From Mobula hypostoma (taxonomy: Eukaryota), in NCBI RefSeq assembly GCF_963921235.1, contig NC_086097.1, positions 21,516,001 to 21,580,000 of the forward strand: a stretch of 64,000 bases of DNA. The letters are read 5' to 3'. Numbering within the stretch: position 1 is the first letter of the stretch; each line of letters starts with the position of its first letter. Positions 10,790 through 63,122 of this stretch are shown here, in pieces. Position numbers and translations under genes: made by a program. The notes beneath the pieces were generated by a model. The model did not search any database. It saw nothing but the letters and a program-made list of their open reading frames with translations, and was not told where the DNA came from.

Positions 10790-11545
10790 GTATTTGTGGG
10801 GGGAGGGATTGCCTGCCATCACTGGGTGTGTTGTATATGTCCTGATTACTGGGTAAATGGGGAGGCTATGTTAGACATAGACATAGACATACTTTATTGA
10901 TCCCGAGGGAAATTGAGTTTCGTTACAGCTGCACCAGCCAAGAATAGAGCATAAATATAAAAATACAAAAACCACAAACAATCGAACAACAATATGCAAA
11001 CTATGCCAGATGGAAATAAGTCCAGGACCAGCCTATTGACTCAGGGTGTCTGACCCTCCACGGGAGGAACTGCAAAGTTCGATGGCCACAGTCAGGAACA
11101 ACCTTCCATGACGCCCAGTGTTGTATCTCGGTGGAATATGGCTGGAGTCCAACAGCAAAAAGTTCAATATCCGGGCTACAAACAAGTGCCTCGATCGTAA
11201 TATGACCAGGATTGCACCATCCGTTGTTAACCAGAACAGCAAGCCCCCAACTCCTTTACGCTTACCGCTTACCCGTTATGATTAATGGGAGGGTAGGCCC
11301 TGATTTCAGGGAGGGAGGAATGTCCTAATTACTGTGAATGGTGTGTCCTGATTACTGGGAGGGTATCTGATTCCTGAGTGGGGTGTTTCCTGATTACTGG
11401 TAGGGTATATAATTACTGGTGGGTTGTGTCCTGATTACTAGGGGGGATCGTGTGTCTGGGTAGTGTGTGTCCTGATTACTGGGGAGGGTGTGTCCTGATT
11501 ACTGGGTAAATGAGAGGATATGTCTTTATTAATGGGAGGTCAGGC
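10790..11545. repeat. degenerate minisatellite, core gtcctgattactgg, interrupted by a retroposon
   Basis: About ten recognisable cores with variable G-rich linkers on both sides of 10872-11274. Confidence 0.8.
10872..11274 (-). mobile_element. short non-autonomous retroposon with a Rex1/Babar 3' end
   Basis: Ends ...GGSDTLSQ* with the same 3' UTR end and hexamer tail as the 13603 and 31098 LINEs; the 5' part does not match them. Confidence 0.75.
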
Positions 11546-11819: not shown

Positions 11820-13155
11820 ATAGAAACATAGAAACAGAGAAAATCTACAGCACAATACAGGCCTTTAGGCCCACAAAGCTGTGCTGAATATGTTCTTACC
11901 TTAGAAATTAGCTAGGGTTACCCATAGCCCTCTATTTTTCTGTGCTCTATATACCTGTACAGGAGCCTCTTAAAAGGCCCTATCGTATCCGCCTCCACCA
12001 CTGTCGCTGGCAGCCCATTTCATGCACTCACCACTCTCTGCGTAAAAATCTTACTCCTGACATCTCCTCTGTGCCTATTTCCAAGCACCTTAAAACTGTG
12101 CCCTCTCATGCTAGCCATTTCAGCCCTGGGAAAAAGCCTCTGACTATCCACACAATTAATGCTTCTCATCATCTTATACACCTCTATCAGGTCACCTCTC
12201 ATCCTCCGTTGCTCCAAGGAGAAAAGGCCGAGTTCACTCAACCTTTTCTCATAAGGCATGCTCCCCAATCCAGTCAACATCCTTGTAAATCTCCGCTGCA
12301 CCCTTTCTATAGTTTCCACATCCTTCCTATAGTGAGGCGACCAGAACTGAGCACAGTACTCCAAGTGGGGTCTGACCAGGATCCTATGTAGCTGCAACAT
12401 TACCTCTCGACTCCTAAACTCAATCCCACGAATGATGAAGGCCAATACACCGTATGCCTTCTTAACCACAGAGTCAACCTGCGCAGCAGCTTTGAGTGTC
12501 CTGTGGACTTGGACCTCAAGATCCCTCTGATCCTCCACACTGCCAAGAGTCTTACCATTAACACTATATTCTGCCATCATATTTGACTTACCAAAATGAA
12601 CCACCTCACACTGATCTGGGTTGAACTCCATCTGCCACTTCTCAGCCCAGTTTTGCATCCTATCAATGCCCTGCTGTAACCTCTGACAGCCCTCCACACT
12701 ATCCACAACACCCCCAACCTTTGTGTCATCAGCGAATTTACTAATCCATCCCACCACTTCCTCATCCAGGTCATTTATAAAAATCACAAAGAGTAGGGGA
12801 TCCAGAACAGATCCCTGAGGCACACCACTGTTGACTGACCTCCATGCAGAATATGACCCGTCTACAACCACTCTTTGCCCTCTGTGGGCTAGCTAGTTCT
12901 GGATCCACAAAGCAATGCCCCCTTGGATCCCATGCCTCCTTACTTTCTCAATAAGCCTTGCATGGGGTACCTTGTCAAATACCTTGCTGAAATCCATATA
13001 TGCTACATCTACGGCTCTACCTTCATCAATGTGTTTAGTCATATCCTCAAAAAATTTAACCAGGCTCGTAAGGTATGATCTGCCTTTGACAAACCCATGT
13101 TGACTATTCCTAATCACATTATGCCTCTCCAAATGTTCATAAATCCTGCCTCTCC
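11820..13155 (-). mobile_element. CR1 LINE, 5'-truncated, RT domain
   Basis: ORFs 12893-13132 (YMDFSKVFDKVPH) and 12020-12871 (GVPQGSVL, KFADDTK, PHLEYC); (tctatgtt)-type tail. Confidence 0.96.
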
Positions 13156-13176: not shown

Positions 13177-14900
13177 CAAACAACACACACAAAATGCTGG
13201 AGGAACTCAGCAGGTCAGGCAGCATCTGTGGAAGAGAGTGCAGTCGATATTTCGGGCCAAAGCCCTTCAGCAGGACTGGAGGAAAAAAGCTGTAGTAGAT
13301 TTAAAAAGTGTGGGAGGGGATGAGAAACACAAGGTGATAGGTGAAACCTGGAGAGGGAAGGATGAAAAGCTGGGAAGTTGATTAGTGAAAGAGACAGAAG
13401 GCCATGGAAGAAGGAAAATGGGGAGGAGCACCAAAGGGAGGCAATGGGCAGGCAAGGAATAAGGTGAGAGAGGGGAAAGGGGATGGGGAATGGTGAAGGA
13501 GGGGGGTGGGGGCGGGGTCATTACCGGAAGTTTGAGAAATCGATGTTCATGCCATCAGGTTGGAGGCTACGCAAACGGAATGTAAGGTGTTGTACCCCCA
13601 ACCTACAAGAAGGGTCAGAGCCGTCTCTATTTCCTGAGGAGACTGTGGTCCTTTAACATCTGCCGGACGATGCTGAGGATGTTCTACGAATCTGTGGTGG
13701 CCAGAGCTATCATGTTTGCTGTTGTGTGCTGGGGCAGCAGGCTGAGGGTAGCAGACACCAACAGAATCAACAAACTCATTCGTAGGGCTAGTGATGTTGT
13801 GAGGATGAAACTGCTCTCTCTCACGGTGGTGTCTGAAAAGAGGATGCTGTCTAAGTTGCATGCCATCTTGGACAACGTCTCCCATCCACTACATAATGTA
13901 CTGGTTGGGCACAGGAGTGCATTCAGCCAGAGACTCATTCCACTGAGATGCAGCACGGAGCGTCATAGGAAGTCATTCCTGCCTGTGGCCATCAAACTTT
14001 ACAACTCCTCCCTTAGAGGGTCAGACACCCTGAGCCAATAGGCTGGTCCTGGACTTATTTCATAATTTACTGGCAAAATTTACATATTACTATTTAACTG
14101 TTTATGGTTTTATTACTATTTATTATTTATGGTGCAACTGTAACGAAAACCAATTTCCCCCGGGATCAATAAAGTATGACTATGACTATGAAGCGAAGCA
14201 TGGCCTCATTATGCCAGTGGGGGAGGCCATGGATGGACATATCGGATTGGGAATGGGAATGGGAATGGGAAGTGGAATTAAAATAGGTGGCCACTGGGAG
14301 ATACTGCTTTTTTATGGCGGCACGGTCTCCCAATTGACGTCGGTCTCACCGATATACAAGAGGCCACAACGGGAGCACCGAACACAGTATATAACCCCAA
14401 AAGACTCGCTGGTGAAGTGTTGTCTCACCTGGAAGGTTCGAGAAACAATACCTTATATTCCGTGGGTAGCCTCTAAACTGATGGCATGAACATCGATTCC
14501 TCACACTTCTGGTATGCCCACCATCCCCCTCCTCTGCTTCACCATTTCCCATCCCCTTTTCCCTCTCTCACCTTATCTCTTTGCCTTCCCATTGCCTCCC
14601 TCGGGTGCTCCACTTTTTCTTTCTTCCATTTTCTTCTGTCTCTTTCACCAGTCAGCTTCCCAGCTCTTTACTTCATCCTTCCCCCTTCAGGTTTCACCTA
14701 CAACCTTGTGTTTCTCTCTCCCCTTCCTCCCTCCTTTTAAATCTACTCCTCAGCATTTTTTTTCCAGTCCTATGGAAGGGTTTCAACCCAAAACATCAAC
14801 TGTACTCTTTCCCTAGATGCTCCTTGGTCTGCTGAGTTTCTCCAGCATTTTGTGTGTGTTGCTTGGACTTAAAGCATCTGCAGATTTTCTCTTGTTTGTT
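13177..14900. mobile_element. Penelope-like element 3' region with GIY-YIG remnant; inverted structure
   Basis: Minus strand 14341-14435 translates FQVRQHFTSESFGVIYCVRCSRCGLLYIGET; minus arm 13177-14435 (Rex insert inside), plus arm 14436-14900. Confidence 0.88.
13603..14191 (+). mobile_element. Rex1/Babar-type LINE 3' fragment (young)
   Basis: ORF 13670-14041 differs at 12 of 123 aa from the end of ORF 31500-32099; (tatgac)n tail. Confidence 0.9.
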
Positions 14901-19600: not shown

Positions 19601-20219
19601 ATGAACAGGCATCAGTTTAAGGTGTTTGGAGGAAAGTATGGGGGGGGGGGTATGTTGGAGGCAGGTTTTGTTACACAGAAAGTGGTAAATGTATTAACAA
19701 ATTCCTACTCTCTGTGTAAAAGTGCCAGGGGTAGTAATAGAGGCAGATAAATTTGGAAGATTGAAGAGGCCCTTAGATAGGCACATGGAAAAAAAAAATT
19801 GGGAGCTATGATGGAGGGAAGTGTTAGACTGATCTTGGAGCAGGTTAAAATGTTGGCATAACATCCTGTAGTGTGCTGTACTGCTCTATGCTATACTGTG
19901 TGTTCTAAGTTCTACTTCCAGCACAGATTTATAGGGCCATACAGCACAGGAACAGGCAGTTTCATCCAAGTAATGCAAGGTGCCTATCCAGGCTGGTCCT
20001 GTTTGCTAGTGTTTGCTTTAAATTAAACAACACAAGCATGTTTGTCAAGAGCTTCCACTTCTGTGGGGAAATGGTGAAGCTGGCATTATTCTCTTACTTG
20101 CAAAGGGGGCAAAGATTAAATAAACATTTTGGAGGTTCTCGCAGAATATGGAAGAATCTTACAGGAGTATCTATGGTCTGGACGGCAGCTCTATCTGAAA
20201 GGGTGGCCAGGTACCAGCT

Positions 20220-20560
20220 ACCCAGGGACAGGCACATTCCAGGCTGCAGGAGTATCTGCTGAGGGGCGGACTAAAGCTCAGTGCAGCCACCACAAGGCCT
20301 CGGTGGAGAGGACCACAGTATAGGGTTCTTCCACTAGTGGAGAGGGAGGGGCCGGGTTGGATGAGGAAGCCCCTCAATTTATTATAGCGAGTACCACCCC
20401 GGGGGCCACATGAGTGGCAACCATCTTATTGGTTTTGAAGAATGAAATAGAAAACTAAGAGCATTGACTTAGAATGTGAGACTATTAAGGCATTGTATGG
20501 TTTACTCTTGAAAATAATTTTTATTATGAATAATGTTTATTTTGATAATAAAACAAACAG
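20220..20560 (+). mobile_element. L1/Tx1-type LINE 3' end remnant
   Basis: Translates AHSRLQEYLLRGGLKLSAA, resembling the Tx1-like ORF2 C-terminus; AT-rich tail ttatgaataatgtttatttt. Confidence 0.55.
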
Positions 20561-21429
20561 CTACTGAAGAGAAGCTGAATAAATATTAACAAAGTTAATG
20601 GGAGACGAGAAGGAGCATGTGAGCCAAGGCTGGTCTTTCAGTGAGCTAACAGAGACCGACGGTTGAATGGCCTCTTGCACGGGGAAGGCTCTGTAATGCA
20701 GATCTCAATTGATGAGATTTTGTTGTGCCAACCAGGACCTCCTTGTAAAGCTGGACCGTACAGATTACTGCGTTTGAGAGTGATTGTACTCGTTTGACAC
20801 ACTTGGCTGGGTGGTGAACAGAGTTTGGCAATTCATGTCTACAGGAATCTATGTCCACGGCCCCTCTTCAGCCACTCAGCCAGACAGTGCCAGCATCTCT
20901 TATTCTCAAAGTGATGTGAATGCCTGGTGGGGCTGTGTGGATGTTAGGAATGTCTCTTCCACTCAGGATATCATGAAATACAGAGCAAACTCAGTGGACT
21001 GAAACCCTTCGGAGCTGGGCAAGGGTTGTGTTGTGAGAAGGGAGGGGAGAAGGGGAATGTGACTGTAACCTGCTGGATATACTGGTGTCTGCTAGACCTG
21101 CTTTTTGATTCTAACAAGAACACTGATTAAGATAAACAGCCTGGAGTGTAATACATGGTCACTGTATACTGTATGACAGTATCTTCAGTCTGGGCTGTTC
21201 CTATATTGGTAACATGGAGCAAGGAGATTGAAATGCTGGACAACAGTGGATAAAGCAATTTATTTTTGTAACTGCATCCCCATTCCAGTGCTGCATTTGT
21301 CAGGAATGAATGGAAGTAATTTTCATGCCAATTGGTCATGGTTGGTACAGCACAGACACAGGCCTATCGGCCCATCATGGCCATGCTAATCCTTGCCCAT
21401 CTACACTAACCCCATTTGCCTGTATTAGG

Positions 21430-21975
21430 GCTGTATTATTCATGTATCACCGTTGCGAGTGTTCAGATTGGCTGCGTCACCATCTGGTATGTGGTGGGTG
21501 GGGTGGGGGGGGGGAGGCTGCTGCACAGGATCGAAGAAAGCTGCAGGGAGTTGTAAAGTCAGTCAGCTCCATCATGAGTACTGGCCTCCAGAGTGTCCAA
21601 GATGTCTTCAAGGAGCGGTGCCTCAGGAAGGCAGCGTCCGTCATTAAGCATCCCCATCACCCAGCACATGCCCTCTTCTCATTGCTACCATCGGGAAGGA
21701 GGTACAGAAACCTGAAGGCACACTCAGCAATTCAGAAACAGCTTCTTCCCCTCTGCCATCTGACTCCTAAATGGATATTGAACCTAGGAACACTACTTCA
21801 ATACTGTTTTTATTTATGTTTTTGCACCACTTATTTTAACTAAACTATTTAAGATACATATATATAATGACAGTATTTCAGTTTTTTCTATATTTATCAT
21901 GTATTGCATTGTTCTGCTGCTGCGAAGTTAGCAAATTTCACGACATATGCCAGTGATAATAAACCTGATTCTTAT
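21430..21975 (+). mobile_element. Rex1/Babar-type LINE 3' fragment
   Basis: RCLRKAASVIKHPHHPAHALFSLLPSGRRYR; tail aaacctgattct. Confidence 0.88.
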
Positions 21976-22061
21976 TCTACACTTTGTCCATTTAAATGTG
22001 TGTCTATAAGTCTCTCAAAAATAGTGATTGTATTTGATTTCAATAACTCTTCCGCCAGTGA

Positions 22062-22370
22062 GTCTAGATAGAGGGCACAGCCTCAAAATAGAAAGATGTC
22101 CTTTTGAGATGAGGAGGAATTTCTTTAGCTGGAGGGTGGTGAATCTGGACTTCATTACCACAAATGTCTGTGGAGACCAGGTCACTGGGTATATCTAAAG
22201 CAAAGGTTGATAGATTCTTGATGAGTAATGGCATTAAAGGTTACAGGGAGAAGGCGGGAGACTGGGGTTGAGAGGGCTAATAAATCAGCTATGATGGAAT
22301 GGCGAAGAAGACCCAATGGACCAAATGACCCAATTCTTCTCCTATGGCTTATGGTTTGATGTTCTTATGC
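22062..22370 (+). mobile_element. CR1 LINE 3' end
   Basis: agagggcacagcctcaaaata...gagaaggc...cctatggcttatgg. Confidence 0.85.
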
Positions 22371-22571
22371 TTTGTAGTGCTGCCACAGAACAACAAATTT
22401 CACGACATATGTCAATGGTAATTGATCTGATTCTGATTCTGATTAATTGCTTTGTGACACAGGCTATTAAGGCACACAACTAGAGGGCAATTATGGATGG
22501 GCATCAAACACTGGTGATACCCTCTTCTGGGGATGGATGTACATAGGCGGCAGAGTGAGGGTGTCCAGTTT

Positions 22572-22765
22572 TGTTGTTGATGTTGTTCCTTTCCACACCT
22601 CGTGGCGCATCAGGCAGCAACCTTGTTGTTTCTTCTCCTCGTTTTTAACGTTTTTTTATGAGGCTGAGTTGCTAGCTCGATGCTCAACCCAGCACGGATG
22701 GAAAGTGTGCAAGGAGCACTCGCCTTGAAATCCGGTGTGGATGACACTACACCACTGGCCGGTTC
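22572..22765 (-). mobile_element. tRNA-derived SINE (same family as 33088-33292)
   Basis: ttgttcctttccacacc...gagttgct.gctcg.tgctcaaccc...cactacaccactgg shared by both copies. Confidence 0.75.
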
Positions 22766-22869
22766 TAGTGGTTATATGGTTCAGTGCCTCAGTTCAATGT
22801 CAGTGTACAACCTGAAATTCTTACTCTTCACAAACATCAGGCTTGTTTTGCAGCAGTTCATTATGGACT

Positions 22870-22897
22870 TACAGTACTGTGCAAAAGTCATAGGCAG

Positions 22898-22956
<59 letters not shown>

Positions 22957-23464
22957 AAGGGTGGCTAAGACTTTTGCATAGTTCTGTAGTAATTTTATGC
23001 ATTACACTGTACTGCTGCTGCTGCTGCAAAAAAAAACAAATTCCATGGTATATGAGTGATGATAAACCTGATTCTCAAATGGGTCTCTGCTGTGGACAGA
23101 GTGGGAAGGGGTCAGAGAGAGGGGAATCATGGCTGGGAAAAGGAGAAGGGAAAGGGGAGTGATCGGGAAGCACCAGAGAGACGTTCTGTAATGATGACTA
23201 AGCCAATTGTTCGGGGTCATATGACCTTGCCTGGTGTCTCACGGCTGGGTGTGTTTGTACCTGTGCCACCCCCTGCCCCTGGCACTCTGCCACCTGTCCT
23301 ACACCCCTCCTGTGGGCACTCCACCCTCACCATTACCAATATTCTTTACTCCCACCAGATTTACAAACTCGCTCTCTGCTCCATGTTGACAAATACAGTA
23401 CTGTGCAAACACCTTGGACACCATCGCTATATAGATGTGCATCAGACTTTTACGCAGTCCTGTA
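22870..23464. mobile_element. composite Tc1-like non-autonomous element, copy 1
   Basis: tacagtactgtgcaaa mini-hairpins at both ends; interior homologous to 47745-48253; (CA)n expansion in the left hairpin. Confidence 0.75.
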
Positions 23465-23830
23465 GCTGGGAGGTTAGCCTTGCCATCTGCACTGATGACT
23501 TCTGGCACATCAGCAAACACATGCTAGTGCCCTTTTATGTAACCCCACATTTATCGGCTAACCTGTGGCATTCTATTAAGTGCCACACAACACACTTATG
23601 GTGAAAACCTCTTTAAATAGATTTTGGAGCCCTGTAAATCACACAGGAATGAACTCTTTGCAAAACCTGATTCTGCAGCTGCAGCGGGAGTACTAAATAA
23701 CGGGAGCACTGCGGTGACAATAATCATTTCTATTATGTGTCACCTTCCCCTAAACACGTTACAGGGAAATGTTATTAACTGGGATGGTTTGCCTGGGAAT
23801 TCTGTGACACAACTGTGCTTTTCAGAAGCT

Positions 23831-24347
23831 TTAATGCAAGAGGGTCTGCAGATACTGGAAATCCAGAGCAACGCACGCACAAAATGATGGAGGGACTTAG
23901 CAGGTCAACAACTATGGAGAGCAATAAACGTGGATAGATGGATAGATAGATAGATAGACTGTCGGACATTTTAGGTTGAGACCCTTCATCAGACTGTCAG
24001 ACCTTTCAGGCTGAGACTCTTCATCAGGACTGTCAGCTGTTTTGAGCTGAGACCTTTCATCAGGACTGTTGGATGTTTCAGGCTGAGGTCCTTCGTCAGG
24101 ACAGTCAGATGTTTTGAACCAAGATATTTCATCTGGACTGTCTTCGGTTCAGGCTGAGACCCTCCATCAGGACTGTCAGATGTTTTGGGCCCGGAACCTT
24201 CATCAGGATTGTTGGACATTTTGGGCTGAGAGCCTTATTCAGGACTGTAGGATGTTTGCCCAAAACCTTTTATCAGGACTGGATTTATTCCTCTCCATAG
24301 GTACTGCCTGACCTGCTGATTTTTTTCAGCATTTTGTTTGCATTGCT
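23831..24347. mobile_element. PLE-derived fold-back insertion carrying a tandem array
   Basis: Minus PLE end 23837-23930, (GATA)n, array, plus PLE end 24283-24347; flanked by cttttcagaa(g/a)ct direct repeats. Confidence 0.75.
23957..24282 (-). repeat. 9 x ~36-bp tandem array of degenerate minimal hammerhead-ribozyme motifs
   Basis: Minus-strand consensus CTGATGA-A-GGG tctcag CCC-GAAAC-(A/G)TC-tgacagtc; units start at 23957, 23992, 24028, 24064, 24100, 24136, 24171, 24207, 24243. Confidence 0.8.
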
Positions 24348-24879
24348 CTTTTCAGAAACTAATATTGTTTCTAAACCAAAGCAGTTTCATCGTGAACCGG
24401 ATTGTCTGAGGATTGGGAGAGCTAGGTAGAGCAGATGGCAGTGAGTTTAAAGATCAGGGAATGGCCACCGGGTTTCGGGAATTTTGGAATCACTGTTAGC
24501 CAATCCTCTGGCTGAGGGATTCAATCCTGTTGATGCTAATGATGACCGGCTTTTCAAGGTTCCTCATCTGTCTGCCTTGGGAGATCTAACAAGCTTAATT
24601 TTGCAAGCGGAAAACACTGGAAACATTCAGCAGGTCAGGTAGCATCTGCTGCTAATGTTTCTAATTAGTGGCCCACCTTCAGAAATCTAATGACTGCTGC
24701 TGAGCAGTCCCAGTGTCTTCAATTTTTATTTCAGATTTCCAGCATCTGCATTATTTTGGATTGAATTTGGTGTTGCCTCTGAATCCGTGTGATCCGTCTA
24801 TCACAGGGCCAGTAGCAAAGGGAGAAATTGGAAAATAAGTGATTTTTTTTCAGGGAATTGAGTTAGATTTCATGGGCAT

Positions 24880-25825
24880 AGATTCACGATTGTTTAATGT
24901 CATTTCCAATACACTAGCGTAAAGGTGAACAAAACCATTGTTACACCGGATTTGATGTAGCACACAAAAAAAACACAATAAGATCATTGACACAGCAATA
25001 ATAAAATAGTCAAAATAAATATAAATGCATAAGATAGCTTATATACATAGATTGGTTGTAGGACCATAAAGTGACCCTAGGCCCAGGAGTATCTGTACGT
25101 AATGTGTCTGACGGGAAATGATAAAGTGGTGGTGGTTGGGACTGTATAGGGGTGGGTTAGTGGGTGGAAGTGTTGATAAGCCTTGCTGCTTGGGAAAATA
25201 CAGTAAATGTTTTTGAGTGTGGTGGTCCTGGTGTGGATTCTGTGTAGCCTCCTCCCTGATGGGAGTGGGACAAACAGTCCATGAGCAGGGTGGGTAGGAT
25301 CCTTCATGATGTTTCTGGCCCCTTTCTGAATATACACCCTTGACGATGGGTAGGTGATGCCAGTGATGTGTTGGGCCGTATTGACTACTCGTTATAGTGC
25401 TTTCCTGACCGCCACAGTGCAGTCCCTGTACCGTGCACTCGTGCAGCTTGTTAGGATGCTCTCTGCTGAGCGTCTGTAGAATGACACAAGTATGGATGTG
25501 CACAGTCCAGCCCTCTTCAGCCTCCTCGGAAAGTAGGGGCACTGACGAGCTTTTCCGATTGTGTGTGATGTGTTCTGGGACCGTGAGAGGCTGTGCGAGA
25601 TGTGCGCTCCCAGCAGTCTGAAACTGCTCACAGCTGTGATGCTATGCCACCGATGTAGAGAGGGGTGTGAGTGGTGCGAGTTCTTTTGAAGTCGATAAAC
25701 ATCTCCTTGGTCTTGTTGACATTGAGGAAGAGGTTATTTGCCTGGAACCAGGCCTCGAGCTCTTCCACATCCTCTCTATAGGTGACGAAACCCACCACTG
25801 TCGTGTCATCAGCGAACTTGACAAG
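24880..25825 (-). mobile_element. Rex1/Babar-type LINE, RT to 3' end
   Basis: KFADDT at ~25803-25820; FRLLGAHISHSLS...KARQCPYFPRRLK...; KDPTHPAHGLFVPLPSGRR. Confidence 0.9.
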
Positions 25826-25961
25826 AATAGATGTTAGCTGATTTCCCTCTGCTGCTGCGATGAACGAGACAAGTGCAACACTTCAAGCTTAAATACTGGA
25901 AGAATGTAGCGTTGGCGGATTAAAACATAGTGTAGTCATAAATACAAGCATCTGTGCTGAG

Positions 25962-26402
25962 AGAATCAAAACCAAAATCAGATTTAATATCATGGGCATA
26001 TGTTGTGAAATTTGATAACTTTACAGCAGTAGTACATTGAAATACATGACAAATATGGAGAAAAAATACTGAGTTATATTAAGTATATATATATATATAT
26101 ATGTCAATTAAGTAGTTAAAGTAAATAGTGCAAAAAAAAACAAATAAAAAATAGTAAGGTAGTGTTCATGGGTTCAGTGTTCATTTAGAAATCGGATGGC
26201 AGAAGGGAAGAAGCTGTTCCTGAATCGCTGAGTGTGTGTCTTCAGTGTACGTCCTTCCCAATGGTAACGGTGAGAAGAGGGCATGTCCTGGGTGGTGGGG
26301 GTCCTTAATGATGGACATCACCTTCCTAAGGCACCGCTCCTTGAAGGTATCTTGGATACTACGGAGGCTGGTATCCATGAGGGAGCTGACTAATTTTACA
26401 AG
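25962..26402 (-). mobile_element. Rex1/Babar-type LINE 3' fragment
   Basis: ORF 26181-26378 (RCLRKVMSIIKDPHHPGHALFSPLP). Confidence 0.88.
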
Positions 26403-26519
26403 AGGAAGGCCGGACTCCAGAATTCACTGCCAGCTTATCAGGCTGTCTCTGTGGATTGATGGTGTCTTGTCTGTAGTGAATTCTGCATTCCCATGATGAT
26501 TTTCACCTTGGAGGTATGG

Positions 26520-26830
26520 GAAAGCATGGTAGTACAGTGGTTAATGTAACACTTCACAGTGCCAGCAAGTACGATTCCCACCGCTGTCTGTACGTTCTCC
26601 CCGTGGCGGTGTGGGTTTCCTCTGGGTGCTCCGGTTTCCTCCCACATTACAAGGATGTACAGGTTGAGTTAGTGAGTTGTGGGCATGTTTTGTTGGTGCC
26701 GAAAATGTACCGACACTTGCAGGCTGCCCCCAGCACAATCCTCGGACTGTGTTGGTCATTGACACAAACATGGCTTTTCACTGCATGTTTTTGATGTACC
26801 TGTGACAAATAAAGCTAATCTCTGATCTTT
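26520..26830 (+). mobile_element. V-domain tRNA SINE
   Basis: gttctccccgtggcggtgtgggtttcctctgggtgctccggtttcctcccacatt. Confidence 0.85.
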
Positions 26831-28316
26831 GTAAACCTCTGCACTGATAAAGGGAGCCCTGTTCCTGCATCGCTTAGCAGCCGAGTCGGGTTTGGTGGAG
26901 AATCGCATGGGCGAGAAGGACGGTCCTGTGCATTTAAAACAATGGCTCCAACCCTGCAGGTACGCAGAGTGACTGATGGTGGAAGGAAGGGAGCAGGAGC
27001 TGTAACCTAAAATTAGGTTGATACTGTCTTCAGGGTATTTTATGTGCGTGTGTTCCTGAGACGAGGGACTGAGGAGTTGTTGCTGGCTGTTGTTAGAGGT
27101 TGTACTCAGCCGCCACTAAAGCAAGCACTGTCCTGCAGGGAACATTTGCAGTCAGCCGAAACCAAGAAGGGAGGGGGACAGGGAACGCAGCAGCCATCAC
27201 AAGGGGGCACTGCTCCTCTAGAGGTTTGCTCGGTTACTGAAAATGGAAAAAAGCATTTATCCTTCCTTTTTGTCCCAGTTTAAGCTGCAAAATTAATTGA
27301 AAATGAAAATCTGTCCAAAAGTAACATTCAAACCACAGCCGTAACCTTGAGATGTGTCAGCTGTTCGTGTTGCCACAGAGGAGCTTATAGAGCATAGAAT
27401 ATAGAACAGTACAGCACAGTACTGGCCCTTCGGCCCACATTATTGTGCCGACCCTTTAACCTACTCCAAGATCAATCTAACCCCTCCCTCCCACATAATC
27501 CTTCATTTTTCTTTTATCCACATGGCCATTTCAGAGACCCTTGGATGTATCTGCCTCCTTCTCTGCCACCACCTTTTGAAGTTGTCCTCGATGTTGAGAG
27601 GGTTATGCCCATGATGGGGCTGACTTGAGTGTACGAGGCATTGGCAAGGTGCACTGATATCTCCATACTAGGCCCTGATGCGACCAGTCAGAATGCCCTC
27701 CACCTTGCATCTGCAGAAATTTGCTAGTGACAAACCAGCTCCCCTGAAACTCCCTGTGAAATGTAGCATGTCTTTATTTTAGTTGATTGATATGTTGAGC
27801 ACAGGATAGATTCTCAGAGATGTTGACGTCCAGGAATTCTTTGTGCTCACAGTCCTGGACTCACTGCTAAAATTCGCACGTGCCTGATTCCCCCATGCCT
27901 CATTCCTCCTTTTCTTTCTAATCACCCTCTCATTATCTCTGTACTCCACTCATTAAGATCTTTCAAGCATACCAGGGTTTGATGGCTCCACCATTGACTG
28001 TGCTCCTTCAGCTGCCTTAGCTCTATAAGTTGGCATTGGAGCCTCTTTGTCCTCCTTTATCAGTGTGTGTAAAATCATGGTGGGGGGGCGGTGTAGAGTT
28101 AAGCTGAATCTGAGACCAGATTCAAAGTACGTTTGTGTATGCTGTACCACCTCATCGCCAACTCCTCAAGGGCAACTAGGGACGGGCAATAAGTGCGGCT
28201 TAGCCAGTGACGCCCACATCCCATAAATAAATAAATACAACCCTGAGATTTGACTTCTCCACAGACAGCCCCGAGACAAAGAAAACTATGGAATCATTCA
28301 AAGAAAAAAAAAAACA

Positions 28317-29721: not shown

Positions 29722-30345
29722 TTAAAGGTTCAAAGGTTCATTTATTATCAAAGTATATAACTCCAAAATTATTCTTCTCCAGGTAGCCACGAAACCAAGA
29801 AAGAAAAGAACAGCAGCATGATCACCCAACCCCCCAAATCCCTCCTCCCCACACAAAAAGATGAACAAAAATGGAACAGGCACATCGACTCTCAAATACC
29901 CCTCCTGCGCACACAAAAATGAGTGAATAACACAGAATATAAAAAAAACTAAGTCTGAAAAAGAAGTCTATAGTCCAAGTCCGTATCCAAAATGCGGAAA
30001 ACCTGGGTATCATTCTCCGAGCACACTGGTAGGCCTTTCCCTCTCCGTAGCAAAGTGATACCCCAGCGATCAAAAAGCGGTTTTCCCCCTTGCAGAGCGA
30101 TCCCACCAGCAATCAAAAGACAGTCTCCCCTCTCCGTAGCAAAGTGATACCCCAGCGATCAAAAGGCACTTTCCCCTCTTGCAGAGCAATCCGGCCAGTG
30201 ATCAAAAGTCTCCCCTCTCCAGTAGCAAAGTGATACCCCGATGATCAAGAGGCAGTTTCCCCTCTTGCAGAGCAATCCCACCAGCGATCAAAAGACAGTC
30301 TCCCCTTTCCATTTGCAGAGCGATCCCATCAGCGATCAAAACGCC
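29722..30345 (-). mobile_element. non-autonomous retroposon with internal tandem repeats, inserted in a CR1 tail
   Basis: (aaaggttc)n tttattatcaaagta tail; CR1 3' UTR breaks at ~29716 and resumes at ~30345. Confidence 0.65.
30036..30345. repeat. ~44-bp tandem repeat, 7 monomers alternating A/B
   Basis: A: ccctctccgtagcaaagtgataccccagcgatcaaaa; B: cccc(tc)ttgcagagc(g/a)atcccaccagcgatcaaaag. Confidence 0.85.
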
Positions 30346-40370: not shown

Positions 40371-41369
40371 ATGGTATGTTCTGGAAAAGCATATAATAAT
40401 GTTTAACCAGCTTTTGCCTTACAACAAGGAAGTTACTCCTTGGACAACACTTGTTTAAAGTATTGCAGAAATTATTCATCAGGATGAAAGTTCTTGGCCC
40501 GAAACATCAGCTGTTAATCCTCTCCATAGATGCTGCCTGACCTGCTGAGTTCTTCCAGCATTTTGTGTGTGTTACTCTGGATTTCCAGTATCTGCAGAAT
40601 CTCTTGTGTTCACATTTGAAACTTCTACCTTTGTGCGACACACTGCTATTTACCCGTACTAATTAAGTGCTCTTATCAAAGTCTTTGAAATCTAATCATC
40701 CATTTGCCCAAAGGCATCTCTTCGCTTATTAAATAAGCTGCAGATTAAGATAGTAAATGCAGACAAATAATCTTTGACAGGGGAGATGATTTGTAATGAG
40801 GATAAAAGTGAAGGGTTTTATTTTTCGATGATCCCAAGCTGAATGTGCAGACGCTGGAAAGGGGATTGTATCAGTGAGCTCGCTGTGTAACAAACGAGAC
40901 TTGCCCATCCCATAGGACCGGAGACAGATGTAACTCACGACCGGCCGCACACTGTTGGCAGAAGATTAGCAGATCAGTGCTTAATGAGGCTTTCTCATTC
41001 ATCAACGTGGAGTGTTCAGTCGCACAAGTACCGTCTGGGAATTCAGACGAGTGCCAGGAGCGATAGCAAGCTAGTGAGCAAGAGATCAAATTCCCATCGT
41101 TCGGGGAGGCCTTCTGGATACAGCCAGTATACAATGAACCTTTTGAAGTTGGATTTTCTGCCTAATCCAGTGAACGGCCTTAGTGCTTTATCAAGCGTAA
41201 AGCGAGTTGATTATCACCCATTGACTCGACCACAAACAGAACCCAGAGCTGATCAGCAGGTCAGGCGGCATCTGTGGAGGGAAATGGACAGTTGGTGTTT
41301 ATGGATCAAAAACACTGATCAGTTGAAACACTGAACTTTGACCAGACTATTGAGTATGTGTGGAGGCTC

Positions 41370-41572
41370 AAGAAGCTGCAGGTGTTGGAACCTGGACCAA
41401 CACACAAGAAGCTAGAAGAGGTCAGTGGGTCAGTCAGCAGCCGTAGAGGGAAGTGGACAATTGACGTTTTAGGTCCCGAACCTTTCCATTTCCCTCCACA
41501 GATGCAGCCTGAACCACTAAGTTCCTCCAGCATTTTGTGTGTGTTGATCTGGACACCCAGCATCTGAAATTC
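41370..41572. mobile_element. PLE-derived fold-back (two inverted PLE ends)
   Basis: caacacacaagaagctagaagag...agagggaagtgga vs tccatttccctccaca...ctccagcattttgtgtgtgttg. Confidence 0.7.
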
Positions 41573-48618: not shown

Positions 48619-51265
48619 ACCATAGAACCATAGAAATTACAGCACAGAAACAGGCCCTTTGGCCCTTCTTGGCTGTGCCGAACCATTTCCTGCCTAATCC
48701 CACTGACCTGCACACGGACCATATCCCTCCATACACCTCCCATCCATGTATCTGTACAATTTATTCTTAAATGTTAAAAAAGAACCTGCATTTACCACCT
48801 CGTCTGGCAGCTCATTCCATACTCCCACCACTCTCTGTGTGAAGAAGCCCCCCCTAATGTTCCCTTTAAACTTTTCCCCTCTCACCCTTAACCTATGTCC
48901 TCTGGTTTTTATCTCCCCTTGCCTCAGTGGAAAAAGCCTGCTTGCATTCACTCTATCTATACCCATCATAATTTTATATACCTCTATCAAATCTCCCCCC
49001 ATTCTGCTACGCTCCAGGGAATAAAGTCCTAACCTATTCAACCTTTCTCTGTAACTGAGTTTCTCAAGACCCGGCAACATCCTTGTAAACCCTCTCTGCA
49101 CTCTTTCAACCTTATTTATATCCTTCCTGTAATTTGGTGACCAAAACTGAACACAATACTCCAGATTCGGCCTCACCAATGCCTTATACAACCTCATCAT
49201 AACATTACAGCTCTTATACTCAATACTTTGATTAATAAAGGCCAATGTACCAAAAGCTCTCTTTACAACCCTATCTACCTGTGATGCTACTTTTAGGGAA
49301 TTTTGTATCTGTATTCCCAGATCCCTCTGTTCCACTGCACTCCTCAGTGCCTTACCATTAACCCTGTATGTTCTACGTTGGTTTGTCCGTCCAACGTGCA
49401 ATACCTCACACTTGTCAGTATTAAACTCCATCTGCCATTTTTCAGCCCATTTTTCCAGCTGGTCCAATTCCCTCTGCAGGCTCTGAAAACCTTCCTCACT
49501 GTCTACTACACCTCCAATCTTTGTATCATCAGCAAACTTGCTGATCCAATTTACCACATTATCATCCAGATCATTGATATAGATGACAAATAACAAGGAC
49601 CCAGCACTGATCCCTGTGGCACACCACTAGTCACAGGCCTCCACACAGAGAAGCAATTCTCTACCACCACTCTCTGGCTTCTTCCATTGAGCCAATGTCT
49701 AATCCAATTTACCACCTCTCCATGTATACCTAGCGACTGAATTTTCCTAACTAACCTCCCATGCGGGACCTTGTCAAAGGCCTTACTGAAGTCCATGTAG
49801 ACAATATCCACTGCCTTCCCTTCATCCACTTTCCTGGTAACCTCCTCGAAAAACTCCAACAGATTGGTCAAACATGACCTACCACGCACAAAGCCATGTT
49901 GACTCTTCCCTAATAAGCCCCTGTCTATCCAAATGCTTGTAGATTCTGTCTCTTAGTATTCCCTCCAATAACTTACCTACTACTGACATTAAGCTCACCG
50001 GCCTATAATTTCCCGGATTACTTTTCGATCCTTTTTTAAACAACGGAACGACATGAGCCACTCTCCAATCCTCCGGCACTTCACCCGTAGACAGCGACAT
50101 TTTAAATATTTCTGCCAGGGCCCCCACAATTTCAACACTAGTCTCCTTCAAGGTCCTTCAAGGGAACACTCTGTCAGGTCCCAGGGATTTATCCACTTTA
50201 ATTTTCCTCAAGACAGCAAGCAGCTCCTCCTTTTCAATCTGTACAGTTTCCGTGGTCTCACTACTTGATTCCCTCAATTCCATAGATTTCATGCCAGCTT
50301 CCTTAGTAAATACAGACGCAAAAAACCCATTTAAGATCTCCCCCATTTCCTTTGGTTCCGCACAAAGCCGACCACTCTGATCTTCAAGAGGACCAATTTT
50401 ATCCCTTACAATCCTTTTGCTCTTAATATACTTGTAAAAGCTCTTTGGATTATCCTTCACTTTGACTGCCAAGGCAACCTCATGTCTTCTTTTAGCCCTC
50501 CTGATTTCTTTCTTAAGTATTTTCTTGCACTTCTTATACACCTCAAGCACCTGATTTACCCCGTTTCCTATACATTTCATACAACTCCCTCTTCTTCTTT
50601 ATCAGAGTTGCAATATCCCTTGAGAACCAAGGTTCCTTATTCCTATTCAATTTGCCTTTAATCCTGACAGGAACATACAAACTCTGCACTCTCAAAATTT
50701 CCCCTTTGAAGGCTTCCCACCTACCAATCACATCTTTGCCAGAGAACAACCTGTCCCAATCCACGCTTTTTAGATCCTTTCTCATTTCTTCAAATTTGGC
50801 CGCCTTCCAGTTCAGAACCTCAACCCTAGGACCAGATCTATCCTTGTCCATGATCAAATTGAAACTAATGGTGTTATGATCACTGGAACCAAAGTGCTCC
50901 CCTACACAGACTTCTGTCACTTGCCCTAATTCGTTACCTAACAGGAGATCCAACATTGCATCCCCTCTAGTTGGTCCCTCTATATACTGATTTAGAAAAC
51001 TTTCCTGAACACATTTTACAGACTCTAAACCATTTAGACCCCTAACAGTATGGGAGTCCCAATCAATGTATGGAAAATTAAAATCTCCTACCACCACAAC
51101 TTTATGTTTCCTGCAGTTGCCTGCTATCTCTCTGCAGATTTGCTCTTCCAAGTCTCGTTGACTATTGAGTGGTCTGTAATACAATCCCACTAATGTGGCC
51201 ATACCTTTCCTGTTTCTCAGCTCCACCCATAAGGACTCAGTAGACAAGCCCTCTAATTTGTCCTA
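48619..51265 (-). mobile_element. young CR1 LINE, 2.65 kb, most of ORF2 (endonuclease C-half + RT) in five frameshifted segments
   Basis: ORFs 50543-51247 (YYRP, VGDFN, SDH), 50158-50580, 49879-50151, 49551-49889 (DFSKAFD, GVPQG), 48694-49596 (KFADD); inserted in a Rex tail (48468-48618 / 51266-51600). Confidence 0.97.
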
Positions 51266-52619: not shown

Positions 52620-54320
52620 TTTTTTATTCTTCATTCCTTCCTTCCTTCTGTCCATCCCTTCTTCCTTCTTCTTCCTTCCTTCCTTCCTTCCTCCCCTCCC
52701 CTCCCCTCCCCTCCCCTCCCCTTCTTCCTTCCTTACCTTACTATCTTCCCTTTTTTCTTCCATTCCTACCTTCTTCCTTCCTTCCTTCCTTCCTTCCTTT
52801 CCTTCTTCCTCTTTCCTTTCTCCCTTCCCATCTTTTCTTCCTTCCTTCCTTTCTTTTTCTTTCCTTCCTTCCCTCCCTCCCCTCCCTTCCTTCCTTCCTT
52901 CCTTCCTCTCCTTCCTCCCTTTTCTTCCCTTCCTTCCTTCCCTTCCTTCCCTTTCTTCCTTCCTTCCCTCCCTCCCCTCCCTTCCTTCCTTTCTTCCTTC
53001 CTCTCCTTCCTCCCTTTTCTTCCCTTCCTTCCTTCCCTTCCTTCCCTTTCTTCCTTCCTTCCCTCCCTCCCTTTCTTCCCTCCCTTCCTTCCCTTTCTTC
53101 CTTCCTTCCCTTCCCTCCCTCCCTTTCTTCCCTTACCTTACTCTCTTCCCTTTTTTCCTTCCTTCCTTCCTTCCTTCCTTTCCTTCTTCCTCTTTCCTTT
53201 CTCCCTTCCCATCTTTTCTTCCTTCCTTCCTTTCTTTTTCTTTCCTTCCCTCCCTCCCTTTCTTCCCTTACCTTACTCTCTTCCCTTTTTTCCTTCCTTC
53301 CTTCCTTCCTTCCTTTCCTTCTTCTTTCCTTTCTCCCTTCCCATCTTTTCTTCCTTCCTTCCTTTCTTTTTCTTTCCTTCCTTCCCTCCCTCCCCTCCCT
53401 TCCTTCCTTCCTTCCTTCCTCTCCTTCCTCCCTTTTCTTCCCTTCCTTCCTTCCCTTCCTTCCCTTTCTTCCTTCTTCCCTCCCTCCCCTCCCTTCCTTC
53501 CTTTCTTCCTTCCTCTCCTTCCTCCCTTTTCTTCCCTTCCTTCCTTCCCTTCCTTCCCTTTCTTCCTTCCTTCCCTTCCCTCCCTCCCTTTCTTCCCTTA
53601 CCTTCCTTCCTTCCCTTACCTTACTCTCTTCCCTTTTTTCTTCCATTCCTACCTTCTTCCTTCCTTCCTCTCCTTCCTTCCTCTCCTTCCTTCCTCTCCT
53701 TCCTTCCTCTCCTCTCCTTCCTTCCTCTCCTTCCTTCCTCTCCTCTCCTTCCTCTCCTCTCCTTCCTTCCTCTCCTTCCTTCCTCTCCTTCCTTCCTCTC
53801 CTTCCTTCCTCTCCTTCCTTCCTCTCCTTCCTTCCTCTCCTTCCTTCCTCTCCTTCCTTCCTCTCCTTCCTTCCTCTCCTTCCTTCCTCTCCTTCCTTCC
53901 TTCCTCTCCTTCCTTCCTTCCTCTCCTTCCTTCCTTCCTCTCCTTCCTTCCTTCCTCTCCTTCCTTCCTTCCTCTCCTTCCTTCCTTCCTCTCCTTCCTT
54001 CCTTCCTCTCCTTCCTTCCTTCCTATCCTTCCTTCCTTCCTCTCCTTCCTTCCTTCCTTCCTCTCCTTCCTTCCTTCCTTCCTCTCCTTCCTTCCTTCCT
54101 TCCTCTCCTTCCTTCCTTCCTTCCTCTCCTTCCTTCCTTCCTTCCTCTCCTTCCTTCCTTCCTTCCTCTCCTTCCTTCCTTCCTTCCTCTCCTTCCTTCC
54201 TTCCTTCCTCTCCTTCCTTCCTTCCTTCCTCTCCTTCCTTCCTTCCTTCCTCTCCTTCCTTCCTTCCTTCCTCTCCTTCCTTCCTTCCTTCCTCTCCTTC
54301 CTTCCTTCCTCTCCTTCCTT
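52620..54320. repeat. 1.7-kb polypyrimidine (TTCC-based) complex microsatellite
   Basis: Almost entirely C/T on the plus strand. Confidence 0.97.
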
Positions 54321-58020: not shown

Positions 58021-58200
58021 AGCCTGGGTGGTACTGGTAGAAAAAGTATTTATAACCCGTCCTTAATTTTCATTGTGAAAATGGTGCTAAGCTTTCTTTG
58101 TGAACTGCTGCAGTTCTTGTGATGAATCTGTTCCTATTGCTGTTGGGTAGAGAGTTTCAAGGTTAAGCTTTGCCCTGAGAAACTCCTGGATATTTCGCAG

Positions 58201-58556
58201 AAACTCCTGTAAACACTGATACGCTCCTAGGGAACCCTTTAAATCCTGACACACTCTCAGGGACTCATTTAACCTTGACATACTCCCAGACACCCCTTTA
58301 ACCCTGACACATTCCCAGAGACCCCTGTAAACACTGACACACTCCCAGAGATCCCCTTTAACCCTGACAAACTCCTAGAGACCCCATTAACCCTGACACA
58401 CTTCCAGGAACCCCTATAATGCTGACACACTCTGAGAGATGTCAATGAGCCTGACCACTCCCAGACACCCCTTTAACCCTGACACACTCCTACGGATCCC
58501 TTTAGCCCTGACAAACTTCCAGAGACCTCATTAACCCTGACACAATCCCAGAGACC
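58201..58556. repeat. ~29-30-bp minisatellite, ~12 units
   Basis: Consensus acccctttaaccctgacacactcccagag. Confidence 0.9.
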
Positions 58557-62199: not shown

Positions 62200-63122
62200 A
62201 GGTAGTGGGAGAGTCTAGGGACAGAGAGCACAGCTGCATAATTGAAGCACGTTCCTTTAGAACATAGGTAAGAAGGAATTTTTTTAGCCAGAAGGTAGTG
62301 AATCTGTGGAATTAATTGCCATAGATGGCTGTGGAGGCCAAGTTGTTACAGTATATTTAAAGCAGAAGTTAATACGTACTTAGGCTGTCAAAGACGAGAA
62401 AATCTGCGGATGGCTGGAAATTCAAGCAACGCACACAAAATGCTGGTGGAACGCAGCAGGCCAGGCAGCATCTATAGGAAGAGGTACAGTCGATGTTTCG
62501 GGTCGAGACCCTTCGTCATAACTAACGGAAAAAAGAGATAGTAAGAGATTTGAAAGTGGAGGGGGGAGGGGGAGATCGGAAATGATAGGAGAAGACAGGA
62601 GGGGGAGGGATAAAGCTAAGAGCTGGAAAGTTGATTGGCAAAAGGGATACAAGACTGGAGAAGGGGGAGTATCATGGGACAGAAGGCCTTGGAAGAAAAA
62701 GGGGGAGGGGAGCACCAGAGGAAGATGGAGAACAGGCAAGGAGTTATTGTGAGAGGGAAAGAGAGAGAAAAAAAATTAAAAATTAAGGATGGGGTAAGAA
62801 GGGGAGGAGGGGCATTTCCTCCCCCTCCTGTCTTCTATCATTTTGGATCTCCCCCTCCCCCTCCCCCTTCCACTTTCAAATCTCTTACTATCTCTTCTTT
62901 CATTTAGTCTTGACGAAGGTTCTTGGCCCAAAACGTCGACTGTACTTCATCCTATAGATGCTGCCTGGCCTGCTGCATTCCATCAGCATCTTGTGTGTGA
63001 GGCTGTCAAAGGTTATGGGGAGAATGCGATTGAGAGTTAAAATAAATCAGCTATGATTGAATGGTAGAGCAGACTCGATGGGCTGAATGCCCTCATTCTG
63101 CTCCTAAGTCTTATGGTCTATG
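62200..63122 (+). mobile_element. CR1 3' end split by a PLE insertion
   Basis: CR1 text stops at 62393 and resumes at 63000. Confidence 0.85.
62394..62999. mobile_element. Penelope-like element: inverted terminal segments with 12-bp TSD
   Basis: Minus arm 62394-62814, plus arm 62815-62999; aggctgtcaaag at 62382-62393 and 63000-63011. Confidence 0.88.

Follow-up and report, generated by a model that had tools for sequence, protein, structure and literature searches.

Minimal hammerhead ribozymes (min-HHRs) have been described in the pLTRs of metazoan Penelope-like elements (PLEs), with one core per pLTR and an intact stem I (PMC4209133). EN+ PLEs are reported to insert together with an inverted 5'-truncated partner, an optional 30-40-bp tail and a TSD (PMC8557442, PMC11167929). 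Two further systems consist of tandem repeats. Animal non-LTR retrozymes (PMC7229834; Li, Clavereau and Pollet 2026) are tandem type I hammerheads derived from PLE terminal repeats; they are recognised by consecutive complete motifs, and their units are reported to measure 51-972 bp (bioRxiv 10.64898/2026.07.22.740005), typically 150-450 bp (PMC7229834). TE-derived minisatellites (Haber-Louis model; Alu, B1) arise when a word-bounded retroelement motif is duplicated and expanded, and have 10-100-bp head-to-tail units, whole-unit changes in copy number and bounding repeats of 5-10 bp (PMC6947457).

Here we describe an array of nine hammerhead-derived units in a stretch of 64,000 nucleotides from Mobula hypostoma (the window). 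The array has the element context of the min-HHRs of PMC4209133, and its inferred ancestor shares with them the core, the bulged nucleotide after A9, G10.1-C11.1 and the palindromic 15.2-16.2; however, the array has nine cores at 36-nt spacing instead of one, and a hybrid linker and an extra base interrupt stem I. The surrounding insertion has the inverted partner, tail and TSD of EN+ PLEs, and, like theirs, its inverted short-tail arm is about 30 nt shorter than its long-tail arm, but a central array is not part of the insertions as described in PMC8557442 and PMC11167929. Likewise, although the units are tandem repeats with a type I hammerhead motif that derive from a PLE terminal repeat, as in retrozymes, the survey (bioRxiv 10.64898/2026.07.22.740005) contains no hammerhead tandem unit as short as 36 bp, and none of the nine is complete. 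TE-derived minisatellites as presented in PMC6947457 agree with the array in motif origin, unit length, head-to-tail order and whole-unit copy change (the latter seen in one contig of one relative). The differences are that the two sides of the core are alike at only 3 of 4 nt, that the motif is a ribozyme core, and that expansion appears to have taken place at about the time of insertion. The array is TE-derived-minisatellite-like, and outwardly resembles an extreme retrozyme.

The units lie on the minus strand at 23957-24276. TRF reported a repeat of period 36 with 8.4 copies (23957-24257, score 238), and cutting at GACTG-like starts gave nine units of 35, 36, 36, 36, 36, 35, 36, 36 and 34 bp, starting on the plus strand at 23957, 23992, 24028, 24064, 24100, 24136, 24171, 24207 and 24243. 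A lone GACTG (24277-24281) comes right after the ninth unit. With at most one mismatch allowed, a unit-junction pattern matched eight times in the window, where 0.13 matches are expected by chance, and every match fell inside the array; eight matches were reached in none of 100 shuffles. This confirms the nine units of 34-36 bp proposed in an earlier note on this DNA. TRF, unit cutting and alignment concur that the units are arranged head to tail and derive from an internal segment of the PLE. Each unit is made up of the stem I 5' strand, CUGANGA, a bulged A, stem II, GAAA, an NUH triplet, an extra base and a hybrid linker; the amplified segment is little more than the ribozyme core, as had been claimed.

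The array is part of an insertion composed of a long-tail PLE arm and an inverted short-tail arm, both inside a 12-13-bp TSD. The left TSD was read on the plus strand as 13 bp (23818-23830), but is probably 12 bp (23819-23830), position 23818 being a T in three of four relatives; the right TSD (24348-24360, plus strand) forms a direct repeat with it, identical at 12 of 13 positions. Among random zone pairs, low-complexity tracts included, 44 of 3000 equalled this match. The left arm (23833-23929, minus strand, in the same orientation as the array) is a PLE 3' end from downstream of the hammerhead and bears a long tail of ~30 nt; the right arm (24284-24349, plus strand), also detected as an inverted repeat, is a PLE 3' end without the long tail. 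Over 23837-23927 and 24285-24349, respectively, the arms match other copies of the family in opposite orientations, at 81% (copy 40514-40606) and 85% (copy 40514-40578), in agreement with the oppositely oriented PLE ends and the flanking direct repeat of the earlier reading. The array does lie between these ends, but not directly: a GATA/GGAT microsatellite spacer found by TRF (23930-23956) separates it from the left arm. On the other side, positions 24277-24283 (minus strand) constitute the fold-back junction, where the last unit's stem I 5' strand is joined by a further 2 nt that match the native upstream context. We also observed that 23923-23961, minus later GATA growth, leaves about 7 irregular bases between the left arm and unit 1, which resemble the degraded start of a further unit.

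The window contains at least about a dozen further fragments of the same PLE end, and in its monomers CAGUC and GACUG directly flank the core, forming a 5-bp stem I. One copy of a sister subfamily (c13200) is preceded on the same strand by an ORF end of 27 aa that matches the C-terminus of the ray protein P0001 at 21 of 27 positions; the focal insertion itself has no ORF. P0001 and two further proteins (P0002 and P0003) were found through a GIY-YIG remnant at 14315-14443, with matches from Mobula and Hypanus. They score as GIY-YIG at E values of 5e-4 to 2e-3, below the Pfam curated cut-off, and by eye P0001 and P0003 have a YxDD RT-type motif and a Cys linker. Since a hammerhead-plus-tail follows a GIY-YIG-type ORF end in another copy of the window, the source family is, judging from sequence, an EN+ PLE bearing the min-HHR of Cervera and de la Pena (PMC4209133), which upholds the PLE origin assigned before. 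The Cys-rich linker suggests the Neptune/Nematis type. A long-tail arm joined to an inverted short-tail arm is a described PLE insertion pattern (PMC8557442), and two RT start sites with extension of both strands fit the fold-back architecture of PLEs (PMC11167929). A fold-back insertion at 62382-63011, which served as a control, lacks an array and is bounded by an exact 12-bp TSD; its long-tail and inverted short-tail arms each include a hammerhead motif and ~200-300 nt of upstream pLTR. Other PLE pieces in the window include a copy at 14315-14900 whose 5' end adjoins an inverted piece coding for the GIY-YIG motif region, and a short end at 40474-40606 that opens with a ~10-nt inverted copy of the 5' part of the hammerhead core, a micro fold-back inside the ribozyme. 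Several decayed PLE-end fragments in mixed orientations occupy ~330 bp at 41230-41560, and two more, from a different subfamily, lie just right of the insertion at 24611-24750.

We compared the locus with four related organisms (B, D, F and J, four of the 24 runs listed), and the insertion was found at the orthologous site in all four. Single contigs lead from the left flank into the array in D (to 23998), F (to 24030) and J (to 24244), and two overlapping contigs do so in B (to 24101); right-flank contigs of the relatives extend into the right arm. Among the contigs listed for the four relatives, none spans the whole insertion and none represents an empty site. Because the array is found in other organisms, an assembly artefact can be ruled out. 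Orthologous contigs diverge from the window by about 2% in B and by 6-9% in D, F and J, from which we infer an age for the insertion of about three to four times that of these splits. In D, F and J the GATA tract is shorter by ~20 nt, and in one relative by 8 nt, judging from gap counts and lengths; because of its shortness in D, F and J, we regard it as mostly a later, lineage-specific expansion. Telomerase-like stutter was considered as the origin of the tract and rejected, as the tract is mostly absent in three of the four relatives.

One contig of J skips 71 nt in register, a single observation for which misassembly is possible. Before the skip it has about 20 mismatches at 24031-24093, where 16 are predicted from off-register units plus orthologous divergence; the J lineage appears to have lost two units (units 3-4). 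In D we also noticed a 76-nt contig (23988-24063) covering two units with 10 differences, at a depth of 15.5 compared with 6.7-7.1 in the flank; it may stem from a collapsed stretch of the orthologue, or else from a second array. In paralogous contigs, stem I is where an antisense core meets a sense tail: the joint 24032->24284 occurs in three of four runs, and 24068->24284 in all four (among the joints listed). The repetition of these joints marks the stem I edge as a recurrent switching point.

Four CpG columns of the units hold both TG and CA, and 2 of 34 CpGs remain intact across units. Position 23999 is a G in D, F and J (three of the four relatives), which confirms the earlier interpretation of the unit variants as products of CpG decay. 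The direction of decay is concordant between units in 43 of 85 comparisons. Outside CpGs, the units diverge from the inferred founder at 29 of 251 sites (11.6%), and shared derived pairs number 5, against 6.6 expected under independent decay (P 0.77), a star-like pattern. With so few shared derived changes, all nine units were therefore in place before decay began. The extra base common to eight of the nine units indicates a single founder: all units descend from one unit with intact CpGs. This inferred unit equals the family consensus over the core, CpGs included, and its stem II loop is CpG-bearing, as in that consensus. Measured against a rough local consensus, the arms have 10 of 73 and 10 of 56 sites changed, with CpG changes and differences between subfamilies counted in; the two arms disagree with each other at 15 of 60 sites. 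Units and arms would thus be of about the same age. A two-unit periodicity is weakly present (lag-2 sharing, P 0.023; 0.06 when corrected for four lags) and comes mainly from units 3 and 5, a pair with P 0.12 under a star. A recent gain of two units in this lineage was rejected, given that the closest pair of units differs at 5 of 35 sites. Selection on the core was not significant: 8 of 98 core and 21 of 153 non-core positions have changed (8% vs 14%, P 0.23).

Hammerhead residues are numbered here according to the standard scheme. The invariant core (CUGANGA, GAAA, UH) is complete, with 12 of 12 nucleotides, in the inferred ancestor and in units 2 and 4, while the remaining seven units keep 9-11. 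The earlier statement that no unit has a perfect core is incorrect for the core alone, and holds only if the stems are counted. The inferred ancestor also has stem II, G10.1-C11.1 and the bulged nucleotide after A9; all three inner pairs of stem II remain in two of the nine present units, with G-U pairs counted. No present unit combines the core, stem II, the palindrome and an in-register stem I, and the doubt already expressed about present activity was well placed.

The identification of the units as hammerheads stands for the ancestral core and fails for stem I, where a single extra base at the cut site breaks the register. In eight of the nine units this base separates the cleavage triplet from the next native bases and comes ahead of the hybrid linker. 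It is found at the scissile bond in none of seven monomers of the window, and is missing from the loose-end consensus of paralogous contigs in all four runs. In the inferred ancestral unit one of five in-register stem I positions pairs, the innermost being C-C, compared with five of five in the native monomer. Eight of the nine present units have 0-1 of the three inner stem I pairs; unit 6 does pair in stem I, and has lost its cleavage triplet. Innermost mismatches of stem I are reported to have the greatest effect on cleavage (PMC8495972), and the units are predicted to have been catalytically crippled from the start by the extra base at the cut site. Loss of cleavage is a prediction, because looping the extra base out gives a 6-pair helix of similar modelled stability (stem I at -12.9 kcal/mol, vs -12.7 without the extra base). 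The 8-nt linker between adjacent units cannot fold on itself to close the inner stem I, so a full double hammerhead is impossible for neighbours. These pairing results speak against two suggestions of the earlier note, that the array supplies dimer partners in cis and that it records a self-cleaved RNA of ~36 nt.

Folding energies do not discriminate in this case. The array folds no better than shuffled sequences (z -0.67; 21 of 100 shuffles were as good), and a hammerhead-like fold lies ~15 kcal/mol above the MFE with the extra base present or absent; the preferred fold of the native monomer is also a different one. A cmscan of 20000-28000 against Rfam (E<=10, without an intact-monomer control) returned four chance matches and no hammerhead. 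Overall, the array is likely an inactive copying accident.

We consider it rather probable, though far from assured, that this is a one-off minisatellite: a slip at the stem-I edge would have founded it upon integration or shortly afterwards, and DNA-level duplication would have expanded it in an early burst. Our preference is due to the shared novelty, the hint of two-unit copying and the unit-exact loss, which all point to DNA copying; the birth of minisatellites from TE motifs between short repeats is, moreover, an established route (PMC6947457). Following published PLE biochemistry, extension of both nicked strands would have begun at the two RT start sites, and the products would have been joined close to the hammerhead. 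At the outer edge of stem I, a nascent end would then have re-annealed at a 3-of-4 microhomology across the core; the dimer so formed would have had one base too many at the scissile bond. Expansion, perhaps partly by two-unit steps, would have been confined to roughly the first tenth of the insertion's age. Decay, in which no selection was detected, came afterwards, as did the descent of the insertion into related species and the lengthening of the GATA tract; two units would have been lost in one lineage. Some observations fit this course less well. The microhomology is shorter than the 5-10 bp of the model as published (PMC6947457), units 3 and 5 supply most of the two-unit signal, and the position of the extra base exactly at the scissile bond is left to chance. 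With that base looped out stem I is modelled as equally stable, the core is somewhat less mutated than the rest, if not significantly, and the two-unit contig of D, at about double depth, could be a second array. A star phylogeny as old as the arms is equally expected if the units were synthesised during integration.

Such synthesis is what the principal competing explanation proposes: the PLE RT would have stalled at the stem-I edge and realigned one core length back eight times, in a telomerase-like manner, on an RNA template already carrying the extra base, before leaving it and joining the second cDNA. We regard this as possible but doubtful. Timing does not separate it from the slip at the stem-I edge, because both predict an arm-aged star; it would nevertheless account for the star phylogeny, the common age of units and arms within a single TSD, and the match of the inferred unit to the family consensus over the core, CpGs included. 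The last unit, in addition, runs 2 nt into native context (a 1-in-16 chance), fold-back joints recur at the same stem-I edge, and PLE RTs are sister to telomerase RTs (PMC8557442). Against it, the weak two-unit periodicity implies copying after some decay, the outer junction of the first unit is not native, the template must have had the extra base beforehand, and we found no published report of such reiteration. A further reading supposes that the RT jumped time after time to the 3' end of a hammerhead-cleaved RNA, adding untemplated bases at each jump. A unit parsed as 33 nt (stem-I edge to cut site) plus a 3-nt linker then has both boundaries on ribozyme landmarks, and non-LTR RTs are reported to add untemplated bases and switch templates (PMC8857657). 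Yet the jumps predict variable junctions, whereas the 3-nt linker is identical in eight of the nine units save for CpG decay and single substitutions, and two of its three bases are simply the next native bases. PLE insertion in vitro, as reported in PMC11167929, has no need of cleavage, and no reads ended at the cut site. We thus hold the iterative template jumping raised in the earlier note to be very improbable, as independent jumps should not give a uniform junction.

Two more explanations require units that cleave. The array could descend from a 36-nt circular RNA, produced by an array elsewhere, reverse transcribed by rolling circle and captured in the insertion. A circle would yield uniform units and junctions of one age, the self-complementary linker can pair at 6 of 7 nt when the extra base forms a loop, one two-unit contig of D is at about double depth, and non-LTR retrozymes, which occur as tandem arrays, do originate from PLE pLTRs (bioRxiv 10.64898/2026.07.22.740005). 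This origin nevertheless seems improbable to us: stem I is out of register, with the innermost mismatches that are reported as most harmful to cleavage (PMC8495972), the units are smaller than those reported for retrozymes, and the array passes out into native linear sequence. A circle presupposes a unit able to cleave as well as an array to serve as its source, and neither was seen in the 64-kb window, where the junction pattern detected no second array. That the array is a selected device, offering dimer partners in cis or cutting a host transcript, could be argued from its presence in all four relatives, from the complete cores of units 2 and 4, and from the need of min-HHRs for dimers (PMC4209133). 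We give this little credence, as no unit unites an intact core with stem II, the palindrome and a stem I in register, constraint is not significant with CpGs nearly saturated by decay, two units were apparently lost in one lineage, and flanking DNA is retained equally well.

In the rest of the window, Pfam searches of 47 of the 57 stop-to-stop ORFs (the other 10 belong to a CTTC tract) identified pieces of LINE-type RT and endonuclease and, among these 47, no clear host gene. The LINE-type ORF fragments are located at 48694-51262 and 12020-12892. TRF also reported unrelated tandem arrays at 30039-30341 (43/86/89-bp units), 58194-58556 (29/118-bp units) and 11321-11506 (19-42-bp units), besides the 1.7-kb CTTC tract at 52629-54320. 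The junction pattern had no matches in metagenome contigs, but the monomer used as positive control had none there either, and none in viral contigs, which makes these scans uninformative. Outside the supplements of the retrozyme survey, which may list short chondrichthyan families, we found no core-only hammerhead array in print. The earlier note had named as evidence against its proposal a one-off slippage expansion absent from all other copies and orthologues; the array is indeed absent from the other copies of the window, but it is present by descent in the relatives.

The array is real, old and inherited, and it is probably dead. Min-HHRs, fold-back PLE insertions and TE-born minisatellites have all been described already, and a single dead locus matters little. 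Its value is that of a fossil, with unit boundaries on the stem-I edge and beside the cut site, and with the age of the insertion. There is a limited prospect that the PLE RT, stalled at the stem-I edge of the hammerhead, recopies a ribozyme-bounded 36-nt segment, or rolls on a 36-nt circle, and that core-only arrays recur in ray genomes. If repeat addition by the RT were the correct reading, which taken as a whole we hold to be unlikely, such arrays would be fossils of RT activity and the extra base would mark the scissile bond, a proposition that we advance only tentatively. Should arrays of this kind recur, they would offer a direct way to learn what part the hammerhead plays in a PLE cycle that is poorly understood, and whether repeats can be added by a telomerase-related RT.
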